Positions 25,556-62,609 of a DNA stretch of 64,000 nucleotides are shown here, one piece after another. Both the position numbers and the translations under genes were made by a program. Numbering within the stretch: position 1 is the first letter of the stretch; each line of letters opens with the position of its first letter. Below the pieces are notes generated by a model, which saw nothing but the letters and a program-made list of their open reading frames with translations, had not been told where the DNA came from and did not search any database. The DNA is from a virus (Duplodnaviria > Caudoviricetes): IMG/VR virus record IMGVR_UViG_3300013936_000019, positions 1 to 64,000 of that record; one strand, given 5' to 3'.

Positions 25556-28500
25556 TTATCTCATTTCCTTCAAGCTATTAATAATGTCATCAACGTTCTC
25601 AATTTCATCTCTATACTCTTCAAGATATTCTTTCACAACATTAACGTCTTTCACGTATATTTTATATCTTGTATCAATATCTTCAAAAACATCAAATATA
25701 GAACCCATAATCCCCCAGTTCTGAACGGATAAGTTGTCCCTGTCGAGAACATACAGTTCGTCATATTCTCCAGTTAAAACATATTGTTCATACCCTTTTT
25801 TGTCTGTATAAACCATTACAATTTCTAGCATATTGTTTCCTCCTTTATATACACATGCCATCCTTGCCATACACCTTAATGCATCTAACGAACCATTCAA
25901 CACTTTCGTTGAAATCATCGTTGTTATCAGAAATATACTCATAATCTTCCTTAGATGGACAATCCGGAACTCCCAACTGAATCCAGTCGTAGTACGCATT
26001 TTCATTATTCATATGAAGCATAATGTTGTGCATCTGTTTCAGAATCTCAATTCTTTCTTTTTTGTTTTGTTCTGTCATAATTTTTTCCTCAACAATCTTC
26101 AGGCACAATGCCGTAATCATCAGACAACTCCTTTAACATCTTATGTCCATCCATATAAGTAGTCTTTATCCAAGACGCTTCACCTTGGAATATCATGAAA
26201 TTTTTCTTGTCCACATACTCAAATCCGTCAAAATCTGAAGCAATGAAGTTAATCATATCTCCATGCATGTTCTTTAAATCCTTTAGAAACTTAACTTTCT
26301 CACTGTCATAATTGATAATAGTGATAGTTTCGTGGAATTCGTCATAATAGACATCAACACTTTCCATGTCATGTTTCCAATAACTACAAATAAGAATTAA
26401 ACCTTCCATTAGATTTCAACCTCTCTTCTAACGGCATTTACAAAGCCGTTCAATGTTCTGTCGCTTCTTCTAAAGCAGTCCACCAAATCATTTGTTGTGA
26501 GATATTTTGGCAGAGCATAATACTCCGCCGGATAAATCACTGCAATGTACTTCATCATTCCTCTTGATTCAATCCAATCATTCTCAGAATCAGCATAGAA
26601 CATATTTATATATGTCCTATAACTGTCTAACCCTGTTTCACAATAGTTGAAACCGTAATTCCAGCCACGCTCCTTGAACTGTTTATTCAGCTCCTTAACT
26701 AAAACTTTACTAACTTGTGCTTTCATCTTTATCACTCATCCTTTCTTAGAACCACTCATTCTCAAGTGCGTCTTTATAGTACTGCTTTCTTGCCTTTGCA
26801 TAATAAACTAACTGTTTTTCGTCCAGTTCTGAAAGCTTCTCTTTCCCAAAGCATTGTAAAACGTCCCAATCTCCGTCATAATTGATTCCATATTCATGGT
26901 TACACATTTCATAGTAATAAGCCCCAACTGCAAATTCTTCATCTTGCATAAGTTTGTCCAGCTCCTCGTCTGAGTTGTCGTTAAACCAAGCTCTAATTTT
27001 TGGCGCATCTGTTCTTAAATAGAACCCGCCTGCTCCCAAATTATAAATCTTATCTGTGTCGTTCTCAGTGAGTCCCCATTCATTCATTATTTCTTTAAAT
27101 TGTTCGTTGCTAAAAGCGTACTTAACAGGGAGAGCATTATACGCTTCCTGTCTTTGTTTCACAAATTCTTGATAATTCATATTATTCCTCCTCTATAATT
27201 TTAAACAGTTTCTATGATTCTTTTTGCAAGTGTAATAAACTCCTTGTTAGACTTGCAACTAAATTGTTCTTTAATGTTTTGTTTCCAAGTTGGACGGCAA
27301 TATGTCCTAGAAACATCCTTGATCCATTTCTCATATGCTCCGTCCTTGTACTTCAAATCATTGATATAGTCCATACAAGCGTTGTAATAAGCTTCCGTGC
27401 TACAAGCTCCCGCATTATCATAACTAAAACATCTCTTATAGAGAAGATTGTAAAAATCACCCTCTCCATAATGTGCGTTATAAACTTGATTGTAAATTGT
27501 TATAGGCACATTCGCTTTGATGTACCTTTCTGTTGATACTGCCATTTTATTATTCCTCCTAAATTATGAACAAGATTTTTCCTGTTCTTATATTTGATAC
27601 GGCAAGCCATCTAGACTCCTTATAAAAGCCTAGACAACCTATTACCCGTCCTCGCACCTTCTTCATAGTATTATCATTTACAAATATGAAATAGTTCTTC
27701 ACGCTATCACCTCTATAAACAGTATACTATAAAATTGGTGCTTTATGCTACCTACTTAATGCTTCGTACTGCTTCCATGATTCTGTTCTGTCATGCAATG
27801 GTAGAATTTCAAAACCACCGCACAACTCACAGAACCTACTATCACAACTTCCTATATATGAACCTCCAGCCATATATCCTAGATGTCCTTCAGGAATTTC
27901 TTCCACCGGTTCGAAAATATAATGTTTTTCGCCCCATAACATTCTCGGAACAAAGACAACGGCGTTGTCCTCTGCTTCCTTGATGTCCTCTATAACTTCG
28001 CCGTCCTCTAAGAAATAGCAGACAACATCATCATAGCGGTCGCTGATTCCGTTGTTAGAGCATCCTTTAAATGCGGATGCCTTGAAAATATATGCATTCA
28101 GTTTCTTCATGATTTCCTCCTATTTTTCAAACTCTGTTTCCTTGCCGTCCTCATAGATAACGGAATGTTCTTTGCGATTGAAGATTTCAAGTGCAGACGC
28201 CATGTCCCACGTGTATTCTTCCACATCGCAACCGTCCTCATCACGGTACTTGACACAGTAACGGCGCTTGTTGTCGCAGTTATAGAAACGCTCCGCAATG
28301 TCCTCTAATGTGTCCAAGAACCATTGTTCGGTAGCTTCTTCTACATAGAAGAAATTTACGGATGGACGACATCCAACCTGTTTACGTTTACCGTTTTCCA
28401 TAGCATAAGCATAGCGAGCGTTTGTAAACACTTCATAGGCTCTATAACAGTCGTCCCCTTTAGTAACTTCGTTGCCAAAGCTCCAGTAGGACTTTACAGG

Positions 28501-29116
28501 CTTTTCAATAAATCCATGCTTCGCCCACAAATTGCCAAGAAAGTGTTTCCCCTCTCCTGTGCATTTTGTAAATTCAACAACGAGGTTTTCCCCGTTGGCA
28601 TTTGGCTCTGTAAATGTAATGAGTCCAGAATGATCCGTCCTCATGTCGATTTTATATTCTCTCATTTTTTATATTCTCCTTTCATAAACTTTTCGACAGC
28701 TTCCTCATCTGAGTCAGCATAAAGACGGCACACATAGTTGCCGTCATTCAGCACGAGGTACACACCGTCCCCGTAAAATGTTGCCTTCTCAAGGCTGTAA
28801 AAACATTTTCTAGCGAGTTTCATACATATCACTCTCCTCTCTTGTCATAAACCACGGGTCGCTATCCAGTAACCCGTAAAGCTCCTCAGCTGTTACATCG
28901 AGGAGCGCTTCTAGTCTTTCCCAAGTCATGTTATCACCTCCTATGCCCATACTTGAGCAGAATGCGGACTATGACTGCATCAATCGCAATCAGTCCGCAC
29001 ATGATTGCGAGCGTTTCAGCGTCAGTGTCTCCCTTGACGCCGGTTACCATCATGGCAACTAAGAACGCCATAATGCATAAGCCCTTCTCTATTGAAGGGC
29101 GCAGATGGCGTCTCAT
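25556..29116 (-). other. cluster of early hypothetical genes (25556-25831, 25845-26078, 26089-26409, 26409-26735, 26746-27180, 27201-27545, 27748-28110, 28120-28665, small ORFs to 29116)
   Basis: Packed same-strand ORFs with strong RBSs. Confidence 0.65.
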
Positions 29117-29415
29117 TTTTTCACCTCTTGAAGCTGAGACAGACCCGTCCCAAGCTTTTCGGCGTTGACAACATACACCTCATGAGTGCATGTGTCTTCC
29201 ATTGTATAGACTACAATGGTTTCTCCGACGGTAAACCCGTCACCGTCGAACGTGTACAGAGAACCGGACTTCTCAATAGTCACGGCGTCCCCGTTCACTG
29301 CATACACCGGTGCAGTGAAGCTATCAAACTGTGCAGACGGCTTGCATGCGTCCTCTGCTTTTACGACGCAACCAGTCGCAATGATGGCAACGGTCGCCAA
29401 AAATTCTTTTTTCAT
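29113..29415 (-). CDS. putative lipoprotein or secreted protein
   Basis: ATG 29415 behind GGAG; MKKEFLATVAIIATGC lipobox-like signal. Confidence 0.5.
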   Translation of the reverse strand: MKKEFLATVAIIATGCVVKAEDACKPSAQFDSFTAPVYAVNGDAVTIEKSGSLYTFDGDGFTVGETIVVYTMEDTCTHEVYVVNAEKLGTGLSQLQEVKK

Positions 29416-29534
29416 GCTTCCTTCTCCTTTCTCTGGCGTGCACGGATTCTTGCCTTTGCACGCTCCATTTCTTCTTCCTGCTGTCGCAGGAATGACTTGA
29501 GGTCTTCCAGAGAACGGGCTTTCTGCCCATTCAA

Positions 29535-29589
29535 TCTGCACTCTGCCTTTTACATACGGACTTGTGACCGTCAATGGTGGCATTACAGA
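29535..29589 (-). ncRNA. twister self-cleaving ribozyme (type P1)
   Basis: UCUG-UAA-UGCC-AC-CAUUG-ACG-GUCACAAGUC-CGU-AUGUAAAA-GGCA-GAGUG-CAGA. P1, P2 and P4 stems, conserved UAA and GAG, and pseudoknots CAC/GUG and AC/GU are all satisfied. Confidence 0.85.
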
Positions 29590-29610
29590 AAGACGGCTTA
29601 CGCCGTCCTC
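29588..29610 (-). terminator. terminator-like hairpin after the first early gene
   Basis: GGACGGC-GTAA-GCCGTCT with a short U tract, abutting the ribozyme. Confidence 0.5.
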
Positions 29611-29614
29611 AATC

Positions 29615-30511
29615 TTAGCAGAAGTATTCGACGAACAGTCCTGCTTTCTTGGCGTTATTGTACGCCTTTACATAGTCCGCCTTTTTAGCGCCGGACTTAG
29701 GCATTTCAGCCCCGACAGTCTCAAGGACTGCCTTGTATTCCGCCTTAGTGGCTGTAACAGAGTCAAGACGACGGACAGTCTTGAAGTCGTCGAACTCTTC
29801 AATCATGATAACTTCAACGCCCTTCAGCTCGGATTCTACAATCTTCCCGCTGATGATGGACTTGTCAACGGCAAGCTGAAGCAGAAGGGCAAGCACTAAG
29901 TCAGCAAACTGTCCCACGACCATATTGTCGACAAGGCACTTGTGCCAGTCCCTTGTCTTGGCAAGACGGCTTCCGACATTGTCGGAAAGATACTTCACGA
30001 CACTGTCATCACAAGTCATGCCGTAACTTGTGAAGTAGTCGGCAAGGGCGGACTTCCAGCCGTCTTCATTGACTTGACGGTTGACATAAGCCCCATAAAG
30101 ACGGCTTGCAATGTCGTCAAGGGTAGGCTGAACCGCCATTTTTTCAGCCTTATTCCAAGCGTGCAAACACGCCTGTGCCTTTGCACGGTCTGCCTTGCAA
30201 AGGGCATAACGTGCCTTCTCAGACTCGGAAAGTTCTTCCTTGCCCTCCAATTCTGCCATTTCGGCGCTCAAGTACGCAATGTTATTGCGGTACTTAGAGT
30301 CCACGTCATAGACGTGCGCCTTGAAGGCATAACAGGCACTCATGTCTTCCACGAATGCCTTGGAAGCTACAAGCTTCACTTTCTTTGGGGCATACTGAAT
30401 GCCCTTGACATATTGAACCTTATTCTTAAGGTTCTCTCTTTCGACTCTAATAGCAGAGTCAATTACAGCGCCCATTTCCGGCGCTTTTACAACGGATTCA
30501 TTTTTTTTCAT
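29615..30511 (-). CDS. first gene of the leftward early operon, hypothetical
   Basis: 298 aa, AAGGAG RBS, visibly GC-richer codons than the rest of the genome. Confidence 0.8.
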   Translation of the reverse strand: MKKNESVVKAPEMGAVIDSAIRVERENLKNKVQYVKGIQYAPKKVKLVASKAFVEDMSACYAFKAHVYDVDSKYRNNIAYLSAEMAELEGKEELSESEKARYALCKADRAKAQACLHAWNKAEKMAVQPTLDDIASRLYGAYVNRQVNEDGWKSALADYFTSYGMTCDDSVVKYLSDNVGSRLAKTRDWHKCLVDNMVVGQFADLVLALLLQLAVDKSIISGKIVESELKGVEVIMIEEFDDFKTVRRLDSVTATKAEYKAVLETVGAEMPKSGAKKADYVKAYNNAKKAGLFVEYFC

Positions 30512-30519
30512 AATATCAT

Positions 30520-31030
30520 TCTCCTTTTACGGGCGTTACGCCCTTATTTTTTAGTGTTCTTTCACACCGTTAACCGTTCAAATTGTTTCACGTGAAACAA
30601 TAATTTTAAACAGTTAACGCTATAAAAGCGTGACACTTTATGCACTTGGCGGGCGACTATAACAGGACTTCCACCTGCCTAGTTTTCCCGCTTGCATGGC
30701 TATGCCGTGCTGGTTCTGCCTGTCACTCAGAACTATACCATTTTAAGCCGTGATATATCGCTGTTCTGTTACCGCATCTATTACGATCCTGTGTACGTGC
30801 TTTTCAAGGGGGCACGATTGTACGGGCGGTTTTATCCCTTATTTTTAGGGCGTCAATGAACTCATAGCCCTAACTTTTTTAACGGTAGTCAAGCCGTGAC
30901 ACGTGTTACGTGTCAATTTTTTCACTAATATATGCTTTCAAAGAACAACCAGCGATACTGTCAGTAATAAACATTAAATATCGAAAGAACTGCGCTCCGG
31001 TGTTACCCTTTGGGCTGTTCACTTGGTACA
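30520..31030 (-). ncRNA. long structured 5' leader of the early operon with a boxA-like element
   Basis: No ORF; many GC-rich hairpins; TGTTCTTTGAAA at 30947-30936. Confidence 0.45.
30584..30599. promoter_or_regulatory. parS: parS site (Spo0J/ParB consensus)
   Basis: TGTTTCACGTGAAACA, an exact match to the chromosomal parS consensus, inside a 20-bp perfect palindrome (30582-30601) in intergenic DNA. Confidence 0.85.
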
Positions 31031-31035
31031 CTTAT

Positions 31036-31063
31036 ACTTTAACATATGTATAAATTTTGTCAA
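31036..31063 (-). promoter_or_regulatory. sigma-A promoter of the leftward early operon
   Basis: TTGACA-16 bp-TAAAGT with TG extended -10. Confidence 0.55.
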
Positions 31064-35270: not shown

Positions 35271-37220
35271 ATGATTAAAAATATTTGTAAAGCAATAAAT
35301 GGTGATTTTAATTTAGATTTTATTCCAGAGTATTTATGGAAAAATAATTATAAAAATTATGCTAAATATTCACCATATGATAATAACTCTGTTATATTAT
35401 ATGTTAATTTAGATAAAATATATTCATTTTATTCAGACATTAATGATAATTATTCTAAGAATGGATTTATTAAGTTTTTTGAGCATGAAAATAGATATAT
35501 GTGGATAAAAAATGATTATAAATCAAAATAGAGGCAAACAAAATGAAAGATAATAACATTATAAAGGAAAATATTATTCTAATGGATTCGAATAAAGGTA
35601 TTTATAAAGGTGCGTTTATTCATAAAAAAGATTATGGCTTTTTTATGAAAGAAAACCAGTGAACTATTTGCGAACTTGAAATAATGAATGATTATAAAGG
35701 AGATAAACAAAATGGAAGCAAAAGAAGTTAACAACATAAAAGTATATGGTAAACAATATCACGAAATTTCATATGATGATAAATTTAAAATTGTGACAGA
35801 GCTATATAATTTTGCAAAAGGAACTATTAAAGGCAGTTACATTCCTAATGAATTATATTTAATTCCAGATAGCAATAAAGGAATTTATAGAGCTTGTAGT
35901 AACAATGAAAATAAATATTTAATATGCGATCTAGAAAAAGAAAACAATGAATATATTTGCCACAACATTATTACTTTAAAAGAATATGTTGAAAACCAAG
36001 ATAATGCTGCTACCATTGAAGTATTTAAGAGAAAAATTAATATGACTTTTTATACTGATGCTATCAAGAAAACTGAAGGGTTTTATAAAGATAATTATAA
36101 TAACTATTATGAAATAAAATTTGATGGAGATAAAACGGGAAGTATATACTTGGAAAATAAGAACAAGAGAGAATTTATTGACATTCGTAGCAATTATTGT
36201 GGAACTGAAATTGAATTTAATGACATTAAACTTGGTTATGCCGGAGATCGGGTTGAACAAAGAAGATCAATTTTAGAGTCTATTCTTGAATATGTTATGT
36301 TGAACAAAAATTTATTTAATGACTTTAAGAAACTTAAGGATGGATATATTTGGAATAATGAATATTATGAAAATTATGAGGATATATTATATGATATAGA
36401 GCAAAAAATAAAAAGTAAAAACCTTGAAAACAAATTTATGACAGAAGGTTTGACTTTAGACGATTTTAGCGACGAAAAATCTTGATTTATAAGAAATTTT
36501 TGCTATAATATGTATGGATTAAACTATTTAAAATTATAAAGGAGAATATTATGCAAAACTTTGAATTAGAATTAAGAAGATTTCGAATAGAAGACGAAGA
36601 AAAATGGAGAGAAATTATTGAAGACATCCCTGCTCTTAATTTTAAGAAAGAATGGAATGTTAGAATCATTCCTCCTTTTAGCGGTGCTATGGCTAGATTT
36701 TGGATTGATTATAACAATAAATGGGTGAGTGTATATCTTGATTGGTATGGTAGACTTGGTGTCATGGATCAGCCATATTATGAAGTTTATGATGGCGAAA
36801 ACACTATCAGATATCTGCTAAATGAAACTGACAAGATGATGGATGATATTGACAAAATTTTAAATAGAGTATCAATGCTTGATTTATATGAGAATTAGAA
36901 AATGCCCCTCCCAGTTTGTTGAAAAATTAGGCGATACTAGTTGCTCTATTTTCCTTATTTTGTATAAGAAATTAACAAATGCGATGCTAAATTAAATCTT
37001 GCCCTTTAGGGAGGAGGACGAAAATATGTCTAAAAATTTAAAAGAGTTGTTAAATGAAGAAAATTTATTTGGAAGTAATGGAATTAAAACGGAAGGAGAA
37101 ATTGATGATTTAGATTTGTGCGTCGAAGATAAGAATTTTCTTAAGGAGGAATTAGAAGGTATGACTACGCTAATGTATTTAAATGATGGCATGATTAAAT
37201 GTGATCCAGATTACGAATAA
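35271..37220 (+). other. hypothetical genes (35271-35531, 35712-36485, 36551-36898, 37026-37220)
   Basis: ORFs with RBSs; promoter TTGATT..TGcTATAAT at 36482-36509. Confidence 0.65.
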
Positions 37221-40867: not shown

Positions 40868-40889
40868 AGGCGGGTAATTCCCGCCTTTG
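40868..40889 (+). terminator. terminator-like hairpin after hpf
   Basis: AGGCGGG-TAATT-CCCGCCT followed by only a short T run. Confidence 0.6.
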
Positions 40890-40900
40890 AAAATAATATA

Positions 40901-41467
40901 AATTAACTCGGTGATAAACCAGCAGCAAACTGGCCGAGACGGATAGAAAAAGACAGAAAAGTGCTGATTGTGGCGATAGTCACATGAGTTTCTGAATATG
41001 TGTAGTGATGCACATGTTATAGCCTAGGAAGCAATCCTTAATATCCGGTACACATGCAAAAGCATTCAAAAGCAGAAATGAAGTCGCAGCACAATAGATG
41101 GTGCTCAAAAGGCACAAGAATCCTTGTTAGGTTGTAGTTTGGAAGACTATGGCAAACCACGGAAACTCCAATAAGCTGTTTGTCGTGAAACGGGAAACCG
41201 TGTATAAGACTTTATTCCGTCGTCTTAGTAGCCCAAGACAGTTGGCATTACAAGCAAATTATGGTAATATAGCTCATTTGATAAAAAGTAATTAAATACC
41301 TATATTAATACTGAAAGCGGGTGAAAGGTGCAGGTAGACAATCCTGTCTAATGTTCCACTCTTAGAGTGAGCTAAAGAAGCTTTAGGGTAGCTCCCTACT
41401 GCTCAGTCTTTAGTTGTTAGTGGCTGAATATGAATGAGAGAAACATGTGTAACCCGAAGGGGTAATT
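40901..41467 (+). ncRNA. large ornate ncRNA, probably ROOL
   Basis: About 565 nt without an ORF, with many hairpins and long-range helices. Blocks TTAGTAGCCCAA, GTGAAAG..GTAGACAATCC, GGTAGCTCC..GCTCAG and AGTGGCTGAATA match ROOL sequences as recalled. Confidence 0.72.
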
Positions 41468-41534
41468 TTTATATTATTTTCAAAGGTGAGAATGGAAACA
41501 GTGTATATTGTTATTTTTTATGGAGGAAAACAGA

Positions 41535-53644: not shown

Positions 53645-55315
53645 GTGCATAAATTATTAACAATGAACGATTTATATTCGTACTATGCTAACCAGAATAA
53701 ATCTTTTAAATTTAGTGCAGAAGATAAAAATAGTCAGATTGCCGTACAGGTAGATGGCAAACTGAAGTTTGATAAAGAAAATGACTTGCAGGGGCTTCTT
53801 CCTGTTACATTACAGGCTTGTCATATTGGAGAAAATCTGAACGGCTCAAATATTGACAAGGAAGTTATGGAATCTGCTATGCCAAGTTTTAAAAACAGAC
53901 CTATTCTTGGATTTATTCATGATGTTGACGGGCAGCCAGAATTTTATGGCCACAATATGCATCTAGATGATGATGACAATATTGTTTATGATGAAATTCC
54001 TATTGGTATTATTCCTGAGTCTTGCGATGCAAAGCTTGAGTATGATGAAGAAAAAGATAAGACATATTGTGTCGTAAATGGTTATATTTTTGAAGATTAT
54101 ACTAAAGCAGCAGAGATTCTAAAGAGAGAACAGGAATGTGCCGTTTCTGTCGAGCTTTTGATTAATTCATTGTCTTATGATGCTAAATCAAAGGTTATGA
54201 ATATAGAAAGCTTCGTTTTCCAGGGATGTACTATCCTAGGATGCGACGACAATGGTAATACTATAAACCCTGGAATGGCTCAGGCGAATATTAAATTAAG
54301 TGATTTCAGTCAGAAGAATAACTCTGTATTCTCCGGTACTGATATCAATGAAAAACTGATTGAATCATTAGATAAGTTAAATGAAACTTTATCTAATTTC
54401 AATAAAACAAATGTGAACTGTCAGTTCACGAAGAAAGGAGGTAACTGCATGGATAAGCTGAATGAACTTTTAGAAAAGTATAGTAAGACTTTAGAAGATA
54501 TTGATTTCGAATATGAAAATATGTCTGACGAAGAATTAGAAGCTAAATTTGCAGAAATGTTTGAGGAATCCGTTGCTTCCGATGAAGGAACTGATGGTGA
54601 AACATCTGAAGAAAGCTCTTCCGAAGGTTTTACAGAAGAATCTACTGAAGAAACAAATACAGAAGAAGAATCTGCGGATGAATCAAATGAAAATGATTCT
54701 GATGAAACAGAAAAGTATTCTATTGAAATTTCTGATGGCAAGCGTACTTATTCCGTTTCTATGAATGACAAGATTTATGCTCTTAGTCAGCTCGTAAATG
54801 AAGTATATGCAGAAGATGGTACATACTATTCTGTAATTGCTTATGATGATTGTGTTGTCATGACTGATTGGTGGTCTGGCAGAAACTACAGACAGTCTTA
54901 TAAGGATGAGGATGACGAACTGTCATTGCTCGGAGACAGAGAAGAAGTGTTTGTAAATTATCTTACAAAGGAAGAAGAAGCTTCGTTGGAAGAAATGAAA
55001 TCTAACTATTCTGCTATTGAAAATGAGCTTAATACTTATAAGAAAGCGGAATTAGACGCAAAGAAAGATGAAATCTTTGCAGAAGAATCTTATTCTGAAT
55101 ATCTTGATGAGAATGAATTCAAAGAATTAATTGAACATAAGGATGACTATTCTCTTGAAGAACTAAAGGATAAGGCTGAAATCGCATTTGCAAAGTGCGT
55201 AAAGAAATCTGGCACATTCTCTAAGAAAGATCCAGATCATAAGTCTGTAAGACATGGACTTTTCTCAAATAAAAATACAGAAGAAAAGAAGCCTTACGGC
55301 GATTTATTTGATTAA
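53645..55315 (+). CDS. prohead protease-scaffold fusion (YonD-like)
   Basis: N-terminal domain with H...SVE and GCTILG...PGM; long acidic coiled-coil C-terminus; position after the portal. Confidence 0.7.
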   Translation: MHKLLTMNDLYSYYANQNKSFKFSAEDKNSQIAVQVDGKLKFDKENDLQGLLPVTLQACHIGENLNGSNIDKEVMESAMPSFKNRPILGFIHDVDGQPEFYGHNMHLDDDDNIVYDEIPIGIIPESCDAKLEYDEEKDKTYCVVNGYIFEDYTKAAEILKREQECAVSVELLINSLSYDAKSKVMNIESFVFQGCTILGCDDNGNTINPGMAQANIKLSDFSQKNNSVFSGTDINEKLIESLDKLNETLSNFNKTNVNCQFTKKGGNCMDKLNELLEKYSKTLEDIDFEYENMSDEELEAKFAEMFEESVASDEGTDGETSEESSSEGFTEESTEETNTEEESADESNENDSDETEKYSIEISDGKRTYSVSMNDKIYALSQLVNEVYAEDGTYYSVIAYDDCVVMTDWWSGRNYRQSYKDEDDELSLLGDREEVFVNYLTKEEEASLEEMKSNYSAIENELNTYKKAELDAKKDEIFAEESYSEYLDENEFKELIEHKDDYSLEELKDKAEIAFAKCVKKSGTFSKKDPDHKSVRHGLFSNKNTEEKKPYGDLFD

Positions 55316-55350
55316 ACTATTTAAAATTATAAATAAAGGAGGAAATAAAA

Positions 55351-55855: not shown

Positions 55856-57321
55856 ATGGCAAAGTTAATGTTTAGTAATGAAAGCACAAGAAATGTGTTT
55901 ACAAATAGAGATTATGATGCTTTTAAGACACTGATGGAAGACACTGCTGCAGGCAGATTCCAGCAGGGCATCACAAAGGAACAGGCTAACGATAAGATTC
56001 GTGAAGTCATGTTTGAAGTTCTTGGTGTAGATGAAAATACACCTAAGAAGGAAATGAGAAAGGCAATTCGTAGACATAAAGTTGATATCTACGAAGTTAT
56101 TGAAGAAGTTGTTCCGGATCTTCTGAACACTGGCTGGATTGACAATCCTTGGTTCAATCAGTTTGTTGATTATAGAAATCTGGCTTCTGGAGATACAAAC
56201 GAATTCTATGTAGAAGACGATGTTATCCTGACAGTAGCTAAGGTATCTGGTAACAGCCATGACATGCTACGTCAGAGACTTGGAGAAGGAAGTTCTTTCC
56301 AGGTTGCAACTTCTTGGTTTGGGGTTAAATCTAGCTCCCCTGCACTGTAAAGTGTTTGAATATATAACGCATTGAATTGCTGGAAAACCTTAAAGATAAT
56401 TGAACTACAACATAATCTGAAAATGATAAGTGTGAATGTTGCGAAAGTAGAAAAAATCAATTATATGGTATATGGTATAAACCTAAGTACTAATGCAATA
56501 GGCAATCAGCAGCCAAGACTATATAAAATTATATAGTAAGGTTCAACGACCATTCCTATTAATGGAAGTAGGATATAAGTGATTGATATCCGAAGTGGTG
56601 CGCCTCTCGTATGAGAGTGAAGATATGGTCTAATCTTTAGTGAAAGCTAAAGGGCTTATAAGCCAACATGGTGTAGCGACCAAATGTTAAATGAAAATGA
56701 AAGATTTACGCAGAATATGAAAGATTTATGAACGGTGTTGTTGACTGGTCTAAGTTTGTTCAGAAGATTTATGAAGCATTTGACCTGAAGGTTAATACTC
56801 TGGTTCATGATGCTGTTATGGCTGCAGGTGATAAGGTTCTTCCTGCTGAACAGTTTAAGAAGTCTCTTGAAATGAAGGCTGAAAATGAAGCAACAATTAT
56901 TGAACTCGCAGACGACGTCGCTCTTGCAAATGGTTCTGATGTAGTTATTATGGGTACAAAGCCTGCACTTGCTAAGCTTGCTTCTATCACACCTATTACA
57001 TATTATTCTGATGCGATGAAGGATGAAAGAAATACTCTTGGCAGACTTGGTGTCTGGAATTCGTATACTTTAATGGAGATCCCGCAGGCATACGCTCCAA
57101 ATACAACTTCCAAGAAGCTTGAAGACAACACAAAGCTTCTGATTATGCCAGTTGCTGACAACAAGTTCATCAAGTTCGTCAATGAAGGCGATGCTCAGTT
57201 CTATGAAAATACAGATCCATCCAAGAATATGGATATGACTGTTGAAGCTGAATATCAGCAGAAGATGGGCTTTGCTACTGTTATTAACAGAAAATTTGGC
57301 GAAGTTAAGATTACAGGATAA
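55856..57321 (+). CDS. major capsid protein (YonB-like), spliced from exons 55856-56325 and 56700-57321, 363 aa
   Basis: Joining GGG GT|A AAG ATT restores ...SWFGVKIYAEYERFMNG...; size and position fit the major capsid protein. Confidence 0.85.
56326..56699 (+). ncRNA. group I intron (ORF-less, 374 nt) in the major capsid gene
   Basis: P AATTGCTGGAAA 56375, Q AATCAGCAG 56504, R GTTCAACGACCA 56541, S AAGATATGGTC 56620; P1 U-G wobble; terminal G. Confidence 0.92.
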
Positions 57322-61424: not shown

Positions 61425-62609
61425 ATGGCATTTAATATTGATGGAATCATTATTGATAGAATCCAGATGGGTATTGCAGAAGACTTCTCTGGTAATGTGT
61501 TATACACACTGACACAGCTTGCTGATGCTACAATCGAAGTTACTGCTGAAAGTAAGGAAGCTAAGGATGCGAACGGAACTCTGATTAAGACTTTCTATAC
61601 AGGTAAGTCCGGTACATTTACAGCTAACAACGCTATGCTTGACTTCAACATTATGGCTGAAGCTACAGGTACAGCTAAGGAAGTTGCAACTTCTTCTAAG
61701 AAGATCACTATGCCTGGTATTAAGTCTGTTAAACCAGGGACAAAGACAGTTACGCTTAAAGGCGTAAAGGCAGACACTGTTTCTGTAGTTGGTATTGCTG
61801 GTAATGGTACTCTTATTAAGAAGTATACTAAGGATTCTGCTGCAAATGAAACAACATTTAGCATCTCCGGAGAAGTTCTGACTCTGCCAACAGATACTAA
61901 TGCGCCTGCAGAATATGTTATCAAGTATGATAGAGATGTAGAATCTGGTGTTAAGGTTGCCAACAGAGCTGATGAATTCCCAAGAACAATTAAATTAACT
62001 CTTAAGGCATTGGCAGTAGATCCTTGTTCTCCAGACACCGTAAGATCATGCCTGATCGTACTTCCGTCCTTCCAGGTATCTCCTGAAACATCTATCAGTT
62101 TACAGACTGATGCACAGCTGGAGTATAAAGGAAGCTTACAGGTAGATTACTGTAATGCAGCGGGTTAACGAAACTAGCTCCTATGTTTAGAGATAAGCAT
62201 AGAGTGATATGTAAATACATATCCAAATATTTCTCTAATTGCTGGGAAATCGTAGAACTAATTAAACTACAACGCAATATCTGAAAAGATATAAACGTGA
62301 TAGTTGCGAAAGCAGAAAAAATTAATTAGACGGTATATGGTTAAAACCTAAATACTATAATAGGCGACAATCAGCAGCTAAGACCGAGAGGTAAAGTTCA
62401 ACGACTATGGCGTAATGCCAGTACATCTAAAGCTAGGTGGAAATGGGAAACTGCTTAAAATTATAATATATAAAAGCAGAAGATATAGTCTATTCTTGTA
62501 TGAGAATACAAGCAGTTCATAAGAGAACGGTATTGTGTAGCGAACAATATGAATTTTGAAGAAGGTTTTGTATGAAATCTATATGGCTGAAGAAGATACA
62601 GAAGAATAA
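61425..62609 (+). CDS. major tail tube protein (YomU-like), spliced from exons 61425-62165 and 62559-62609, about 263 aa
   Basis: Joining gives ...DYCNAAG|KKVLYEIYMAEEDTEE*; Thr/Ala-rich composition; terminator follows exon 2. Confidence 0.75.
62166..62558 (+). ncRNA. group I intron (ORF-less, about 393 nt) in the tail tube gene
   Basis: P AATTGCTGGGAAA 62237, Q AATCAGCAG 62369, R GTTCAACGACTA 62396, S AAGATATAGTC 62480; P1 GGGU/AGCUC; terminal G at 62558 (62561 also possible). Confidence 0.92.

Follow-up and report, generated by a model that had tools for sequence, protein, structure and literature searches.

Does a 55-nt element on the minus strand of an uncultured phage genome, lying directly behind the first gene of the leftward arm, encode a self-cleaving twister ribozyme, and if so, what would cleavage do to the message in which it lies? 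Bacterial twisters have been reported near phage genes and the processing of polycistronic mRNA has been suggested for them, although their role is not established (PMC6765202; PMC8782182), and no paper defining the natural function of phage twisters was found in the literature after 2019. The window examined here, by which is meant the whole stretch of 64,000 nucleotides that was analysed, comes from a 94-kb IMG/VR virus record, the completeness of which is estimated at 56%.

The genome of this phage is organised in two arms. Leftward genes from approximately 30.5 kb include a RecJ-like exonuclease, a DnaB-like helicase and a Sak4-like annealing protein; rightward genes from approximately 31.3 kb include the terminase, the portal and other structural genes, and the strand switch is visible in the GC skew. 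The portal is approximately 30% identical to those of SPbeta-like Firmicute phages, suggesting that this phage is distantly related to them and that its host is probably a Firmicute. The structural arm also carries a full-length ROOL RNA (40883-41484, plus strand, 306.7 bits) and two group I introns (56316-56652 and 62177-62512, both plus strand, 65-67 bits), all of which are above their Rfam gathering scores.

All of the genes neighbouring the ribozyme are on the same (minus) strand, and a single sigma-70-like promoter match was found on that strand between 28.5 and 31.5 kb, with none between 31036 and 28500. These observations agree with the preliminary description of this DNA, which had placed the element between the first early gene and downstream ORFs. 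The ribozyme thus lies inside a same-strand block headed by the 298-aa ORF, which is consistent with a polycistronic early message, gene content and strand being the grounds for calling it 'early' and 'polycistronic'. A 17-nt motif, AACTRTTTAAAATTATA, recurs throughout the phage, with 29 copies counted where 4.4 would be expected. Every copy is on the transcribed strand, typically 5-15 nt ahead of an RBS, and the motif may be a phage-specific promoter or a processing or translation signal. One copy precedes the 298-aa gene; further copies were located at 27194-27210 (minus), 36522-36538 (plus) and 55315-55331 (plus). The copies at 30615..30599 and 27210..27194 bracket the unit, and no other copy is found between them. 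The features of the locus are given in Table 1.

Table 1. Features at the head of the leftward arm, with positions in the window and the evidence used to define them
Feature	Position	Strand	Basis
Promoter match, sigma-70-like (TTGACA, 16-nt spacer, TG-extended -10)	31036..31063	minus	consensus scan, pattern match only
17-nt motif copy, ~88 nt before the 298-aa gene	30599..30615	minus	motif count
298-aa ORF, heads the leftward (replication) arm; cistron 5' of the ribozyme	29615..30511	minus	ORF list
P0-like hairpin, 6-bp GC-rich stem, GUAA (GNRA) loop	29592..29607	minus	sequence and MFE fold
Putative ribozyme, type-P1 twister, P3-less, 55 nt	29535..29589	minus	Rfam RF03160, A2 alignment, pair counts
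Structured spacer, one hairpin and a three-way domain, before the next RBS	29430..29530	minus	MFE
100-aa ORF, N-terminal signal peptide and lipobox-like ATGC	29113..29415	minus	translation, sequence

The secondary structure was read directly from the minus strand, and every coordinate and pairing that had been proposed for it proved to be correct. P1 is formed by UCUG (29589-29586) and CAGA (29538-29535), P2 by UGCC (29582-29579) and GGCA (29547-29544), and P4, which closes the loop UCACAAGU, by ACGG (29571-29568) and CCGU (29559-29556). Pseudoknot T1 pairs CAC in the loop (29566-29564) with GUG (29541-29539), and pseudoknot T2 pairs AC directly after P2 (29578-29577) with GU in the loop (29561-29560). 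U29585, A29584 and A29583 are unpaired, and a short junction replaces P3. The essential helices P1, P2 and P4 therefore occur in type-P1 order with the termini in P1, and all three are paired in the Rfam alignment; of the optional stems a P0-like hairpin is present, and P3 and P5 are absent, as the family definition permits. In twisters generally P1 is dispensable, and P0, P3 and P5 are optional stems (PMC5408937). When 29615..29530 was folded alone, the MFE structure recovered the hairpin, P1, P2 and P4 (-29.8 kcal/mol, z -3.56).

The conserved core is also in place. It consists of the adenine on the 3' side of the scissile bond, the active-site guanine that comes after P2, the loop motif UCNCAAGNCC and an A-rich junction that is followed by GAGUG, 5' of the 3' strand of P1. 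The scissile bond is predicted to be U29585/A29584, followed by A29583, and the conserved G of the GAG motif, G29543, is the candidate catalytic guanine. In the twister of O. sativa the likely general acid is the adenine 3' of the scissile bond, A7, and the likely general base is the guanine after P2, G45 (PMC5408937). The Rfam consensus alignment places the general-acid adenine on A29584 and the general-base guanine on G29543. These two bases would correspond to A7 and G45 in the O. sativa numbering; Osa-1-4 of O. sativa is an example of the P3-less form.

A search with the twister-P1 model had been put forward in the preliminary description as a check. When it was run, RF03160 matched exactly 29589..29535 over its full length (model positions 1-68) with a score of 45.6 bits, and E values of 3.7e-9 in a local search and 6.8e-7 over both strands of the whole 64-kb window. 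This score does not reach the RF03160 gathering score of 67.2, a shortfall that comes from the lack of the optional P3 and from non-consensus bases in the pseudoknots. To calibrate the threshold, six viral loci with P3-less twisters were scored against the same model. Three with fully canonical pseudoknot bases gave only 56.5-60.8 bits, and three with the T1 and T2 variants of the window element gave 34-42 bits. As canonical P3-less forms also fall below 67.2, the gathering cut-off is unreachable for the whole compact class, and missing it is no evidence against membership of the twister family; the E value of 6.8e-7 is still a significant one. It follows that phage twisters are under-annotated, as the curated Rfam threshold misses compact P3-less forms. 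In a ribozyme scan of the 94-kb record the window twister was the only match.

Both pseudoknots depart from consensus, and the claim that they are kept by compensatory bases, CAC/GUG and AC/GU, was upheld by the pairings in the sequence itself and by the recurrence of both variants in other phages. Pattern scans of IMG/VR in which both T1 strands were fixed found the CAC/GUG form in more than 114 viral contigs and the canonical CCC/GGG form in 74. Since those two patterns had fixed both T1 strands, a third scan was anchored on the 5' half and the loop only, leaving the T1 bases free, and only newly found loci were tallied. The middle pair of T1 in these 58 loci was A-U in 44, G-C in seven, U-A in four and C-G in two, and was unpaired in one. 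CAC/GUG is therefore the commonest, and thus the usual, T1 form of phages in IMG/VR, and its middle pair covaries through all four Watson-Crick combinations. The 5' strand of T2 was never constrained in the scans, and in the 117 parsed twisters whose P1 had 3 bp or more T2 covaried cleanly, being G-C in 98 and A-U in 15, with four exceptions.

The window element was then aligned (MAFFT) with 56 distinct P3-less phage twisters, and in the resulting 57 sequences (alignment A2) there were 20 invariant and six nearly invariant columns, all 26 of which the window sequence carries. Across the five helices, including the pseudoknots, 98.9% of cells were paired and both sides had changed in 12 of the 17 pairs. 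P1, P2 and P4 were 95-100% paired with compensatory changes, values that are biased towards pairing for P1 and P2 because the parser demanded P2 complementarity and a P1 of at least 3 bp; P4 and T2, which played no part in the selection of sequences, each had no unpaired cell. The covariation score was 0.546 compared with 0.119 in shuffled alignments, and none of 500 shuffles matched either the observed percentage paired or the covariation score. When partners were slid by one to three columns as a control, only 18-43% of cells paired. The reading as a complete type-P1 twister on the sense strand is thus borne out by the RF03160 match, by covariation among the 57 P3-less phage twisters and by the scans in which bases were left free.

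Several further observations were made on these viral twisters. Compact P3-less forms are abundant in IMG/VR viral contigs, often with two or three per locus (L002-L253), and some are nearly without P1 and abut the upstream hairpin directly. The twister closest in sequence to that of the window, on a 170-kb viral contig (L037:313-560, plus strand), has behind it more than 200 nt in which no ORF obviously starts; this stretch may be a non-coding RNA, and it matched no Rfam family at E <= 0.01. Two related phages (L099:1048-2686 and L008:10716-12599) share a block containing P0, the twister and the flanking genes, and one of the pair carries approximately 250 nt more, a small ORF that sits immediately 3' of the ribozyme; this is a hint that genes are inserted at a junction formed by the ribozyme's 3' edge. 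A raw-ORF estimate of strand context, which is noisy, gave 76 sense, 13 antisense and 121 mixed.

None of the approximately 250 twister-bearing viral loci shares genes with the region around the ribozyme, and their sole recurrent match was to an HU gene elsewhere in the window. The 298-aa ORF ends at a TAA stop codon (29617-29615), 29 nt before the cleavage site; the corresponding distance from the end of an upstream sense ORF has a median of 37 nt in the phage population. The protein has 16 homologues (40-73% identical), every one of them from Logan/ENA metagenome assemblies, and gave no Pfam or PHROG family and no usable ESM Atlas neighbour. Its AlphaFold model is all-helical (pLDDT 77), with no Foldseek match in the PDB or BFVD. 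Neither the protein alone nor its 17-sequence alignment had a match in viral, metagenome or genome contigs, and viral contigs likewise gave no match for the DUF7659 neighbour or for an exact twister pattern. Searches by blastn and tblastn against GenBank phages, and one that started from a virus record to find its relatives, likewise yielded no syntenic relative.

The first clear cistron downstream is the 100-aa ORF, which has GGAG 9 nt before its ATG and only a weak PHROG match. A longer 156-aa frame (29583..29113) overlapping the ribozyme was considered and rejected, as its first 56 residues are of low complexity and its signal peptide is internal, beginning only at ATG 29415, which has an RBS in front of it. 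From the ribozyme to this ATG, the 120 nt fold strongly, with an MFE of -41.3 kcal/mol (z -4.06; none of 200 shuffles was as good), leaving the RBS unpaired, and the spacer matched no Rfam family. It is also readable as a 40-aa ORF from TTG 29534 or as an 18-aa ORF from ATG 29468, the TGA stop of which overlaps the ATG of the next gene, and the spacer could therefore be either a structured leader or a small coupled ORF. Across phages the median distance from the ribozyme to the next start codon is 21 nt, and the long spacer is the one unusual feature of this locus.

Taking fold, conservation and position together, we think it reasonably likely that this is a genuine P3-less type-P1 twister with a P0 stem, which lies in a leftward early/replication message, cleaves itself and uncouples the first cistron. 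The element would be transcribed within that message of an uncultured distant relative of the SPbeta-like phages, would fold into P1, P2 and P4 with T1 and T2, and would cut at the predicted bond without the help of a protein. The upstream RNA would carry the 298-aa gene and end with the P0 hairpin and approximately 7 nt, bearing a 2',3'-cyclic phosphate, and the downstream RNA would begin with a 5'-OH buried in the body of the ribozyme, followed by the 100-nt spacer, the lipoprotein-like gene and the later genes. This end chemistry, with a cyclic phosphate upstream and a 5'-OH downstream, follows from the class of ribozyme; twister products carry a 5'-OH, and in the 3' fragment this terminus is reportedly enclosed by the folded RNA (PMC8782182). 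The likely effect would be that the first cistron is separated from the rest, each part having its own structure-protected end and hence, as we propose, its own stability and translation.

The alternative that survives best accepts the activity and reverses the outcome, so that the ribozyme would be a down-regulator in which RNase J1 degrades the RNA from the 5'-OH end and the later genes are expressed less than the first. There is a precedent in Firmicutes, where RNase J1 can be attracted by a 5'-OH end, as it is by the one that the glmS ribozyme leaves after self-cleavage. The probable Firmicute host of this phage, as judged from its portal, fits such a scheme, as do the 5'-OH on twister products (PMC8782182) and the degradation of the glmS message by cellular RNases that follows its cleavage (PMC6765202). 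The buried 5' end of the twister 3' fragment speaks against it (PMC8782182), and so does what phages place behind their twisters. The genes directly 3' of phage twisters have mostly early, regulatory and replication functions: among 147 that were non-identical, a set that includes related phages so that counts are not independent, 12-17 were AbrB/MazE-like DNA binders, nine Mu Gam, approximately 15-20 HTH regulators, five FtsK-like proteins and two DnaC-like loaders. Short distances to the starts of such genes fit a usable message better than a destroyed one, and destruction is in our view an unlikely outcome.

A second alternative concerns the origin of the locus. From approximately 28700 to 30450 there is an island of approximately 50% GC inside a phage of 30-35% GC, and it contains the 298-aa gene, the P0-twister, the spacer and the lipoprotein-like ORF. 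The island was possibly acquired horizontally; no meaningful direct or inverted repeats and no mobility genes flank it. The P0-twister might then be mainly a passenger of the acquired cassette, active or recently active, with little or no role in expression, and its place mid-way in the island, the lack of the phage's own 17-nt motif there and the finding of near-identical twister types in unrelated phages could all be read in this manner. The absence of flanking repeats and mobility genes does not favour such a history, however, and the element's own composition is uninformative, as twisters are GC-rich by nature. Furthermore, not one of the conserved bases or pairs has been lost, which points to selection, and an idle passenger is accordingly judged improbable.

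A functional role that includes such movement can also be imagined, in which P0 and the twister form a portable 'operon punctuation' module that needs nothing from the host and moves together with gene cassettes when these are acquired horizontally. Foreign genes would then be expressed from a resident early transcript, and both RNA products would receive defined, structure-protected ends. We offer this only tentatively and consider it rather unlikely; if true, nature would have its own version of the engineered ribozyme insulators, and the purpose of phage twisters in general would be explained.

The hairpin upstream of P1 bears on a third alternative, namely that it is an intrinsic terminator which ends most transcripts after the 298-aa gene, so that the twister would be found only on rare read-through RNA. 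The GNRA hairpin reported earlier is indeed present at 29607..29592, two nucleotides (both U) 5' of P1; it begins seven bases after the stop codon of the 298-aa ORF, and its stem can be extended to 9 bp (29610..29589). It is not special to this locus: a comparable GC hairpin, with a stem of 5 bp or more that includes three or more G-C pairs and an end no more than 12 nt from the cleavage-site U, precedes 70% of 218 distinct phage twisters, compared with 12% of randomly chosen sites in those loci. In these phages it most often abuts P1 directly. A stem 5' of P1 is published as the optional twister stem P0 (PMC5408937), and the window hairpin is better read as this family feature than as one peculiar to the locus. 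A GC-rich 6-bp stem followed by UUUCU, directly after a stop codon, does have the look of a terminator; however, the U run in the tail UUUCUGUA is short and interrupted, the terminator scan did not report the site, and the hairpin is unconvincing as a Rho-independent terminator. The equivalent hairpin in other phages runs into P1 without a U tract, and the downstream genes would need a promoter, of which none was found in the scan. That most transcripts end before the ribozyme is highly improbable, although the hairpin with its UUUCU could stop some of them there.

That the element is a chance resemblance or a decayed, inactive twister could be argued from its score below the Rfam gathering value, and this is the least credible alternative of all given an E value of 6.8e-7, the intact state of every invariant position and of all 17 pairs, and the recurrence of its T1 and T2 variants in many natural twisters.

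With self-cleavage and uncoupling of the first cistron as the preferred reading, this single example by itself leaves existing knowledge unchanged, as the phage is uncultured and viral metagenomes contain many elements of this type. The locus is nevertheless a clean, minimal example at the head of a replication arm, in which stop codon, P0, twister, structured leader and next gene follow one another, and it could serve as a reporter construct to ask whether the two halves of the message become more stable or less stable through cleavage, or are simply separated.

Among known systems the closest is the type-P1 twister itself (RF03160; Roth et al. 2014, reviewed in PMC5408937), with which the element shares termini in P1, the helices P1, P2 and P4, both pseudoknots, a scissile U-A followed by A, the conserved G after P2, the conserved loop motif and the optional upstream P0. 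It differs from the RF03160 model in having CAC/GUG rather than CCC/GGG in T1 and AC/GU rather than GC/GC in T2, and in lacking P3; on its sequence it appears to be a well-supported further phage twister of an already known kind. Like the bacterial and prophage twisters and hammerheads for which mRNA processing has been proposed, it occupies an intergenic, sense-strand site between small phage genes (PMC6765202; PMC8782182). Unlike those published cases, it lies in a defined genome arm, behind the first gene of the replication arm, and a structured spacer of 100 nt separates it from the next RBS. In the engineered insulator RiboJ, a hammerhead with a hairpin on its 3' side is placed between a promoter or upstream RNA and the RBS. 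The window locus resembles it in having a ribozyme and a hairpin shortly before an RBS, with a downstream 5' end that would be fixed whatever lies upstream, and differs in being a natural twister whose hairpin lies 5' of it, so that the upstream fragment would be the one capped. As with glmS and RNase J1, self-cleavage of the mRNA would leave a 5'-OH that decides the fate of the downstream message; glmS, however, needs GlcN6P and sits in a 5' UTR, whereas twisters are free of cofactors and that of the window lies between cistrons.
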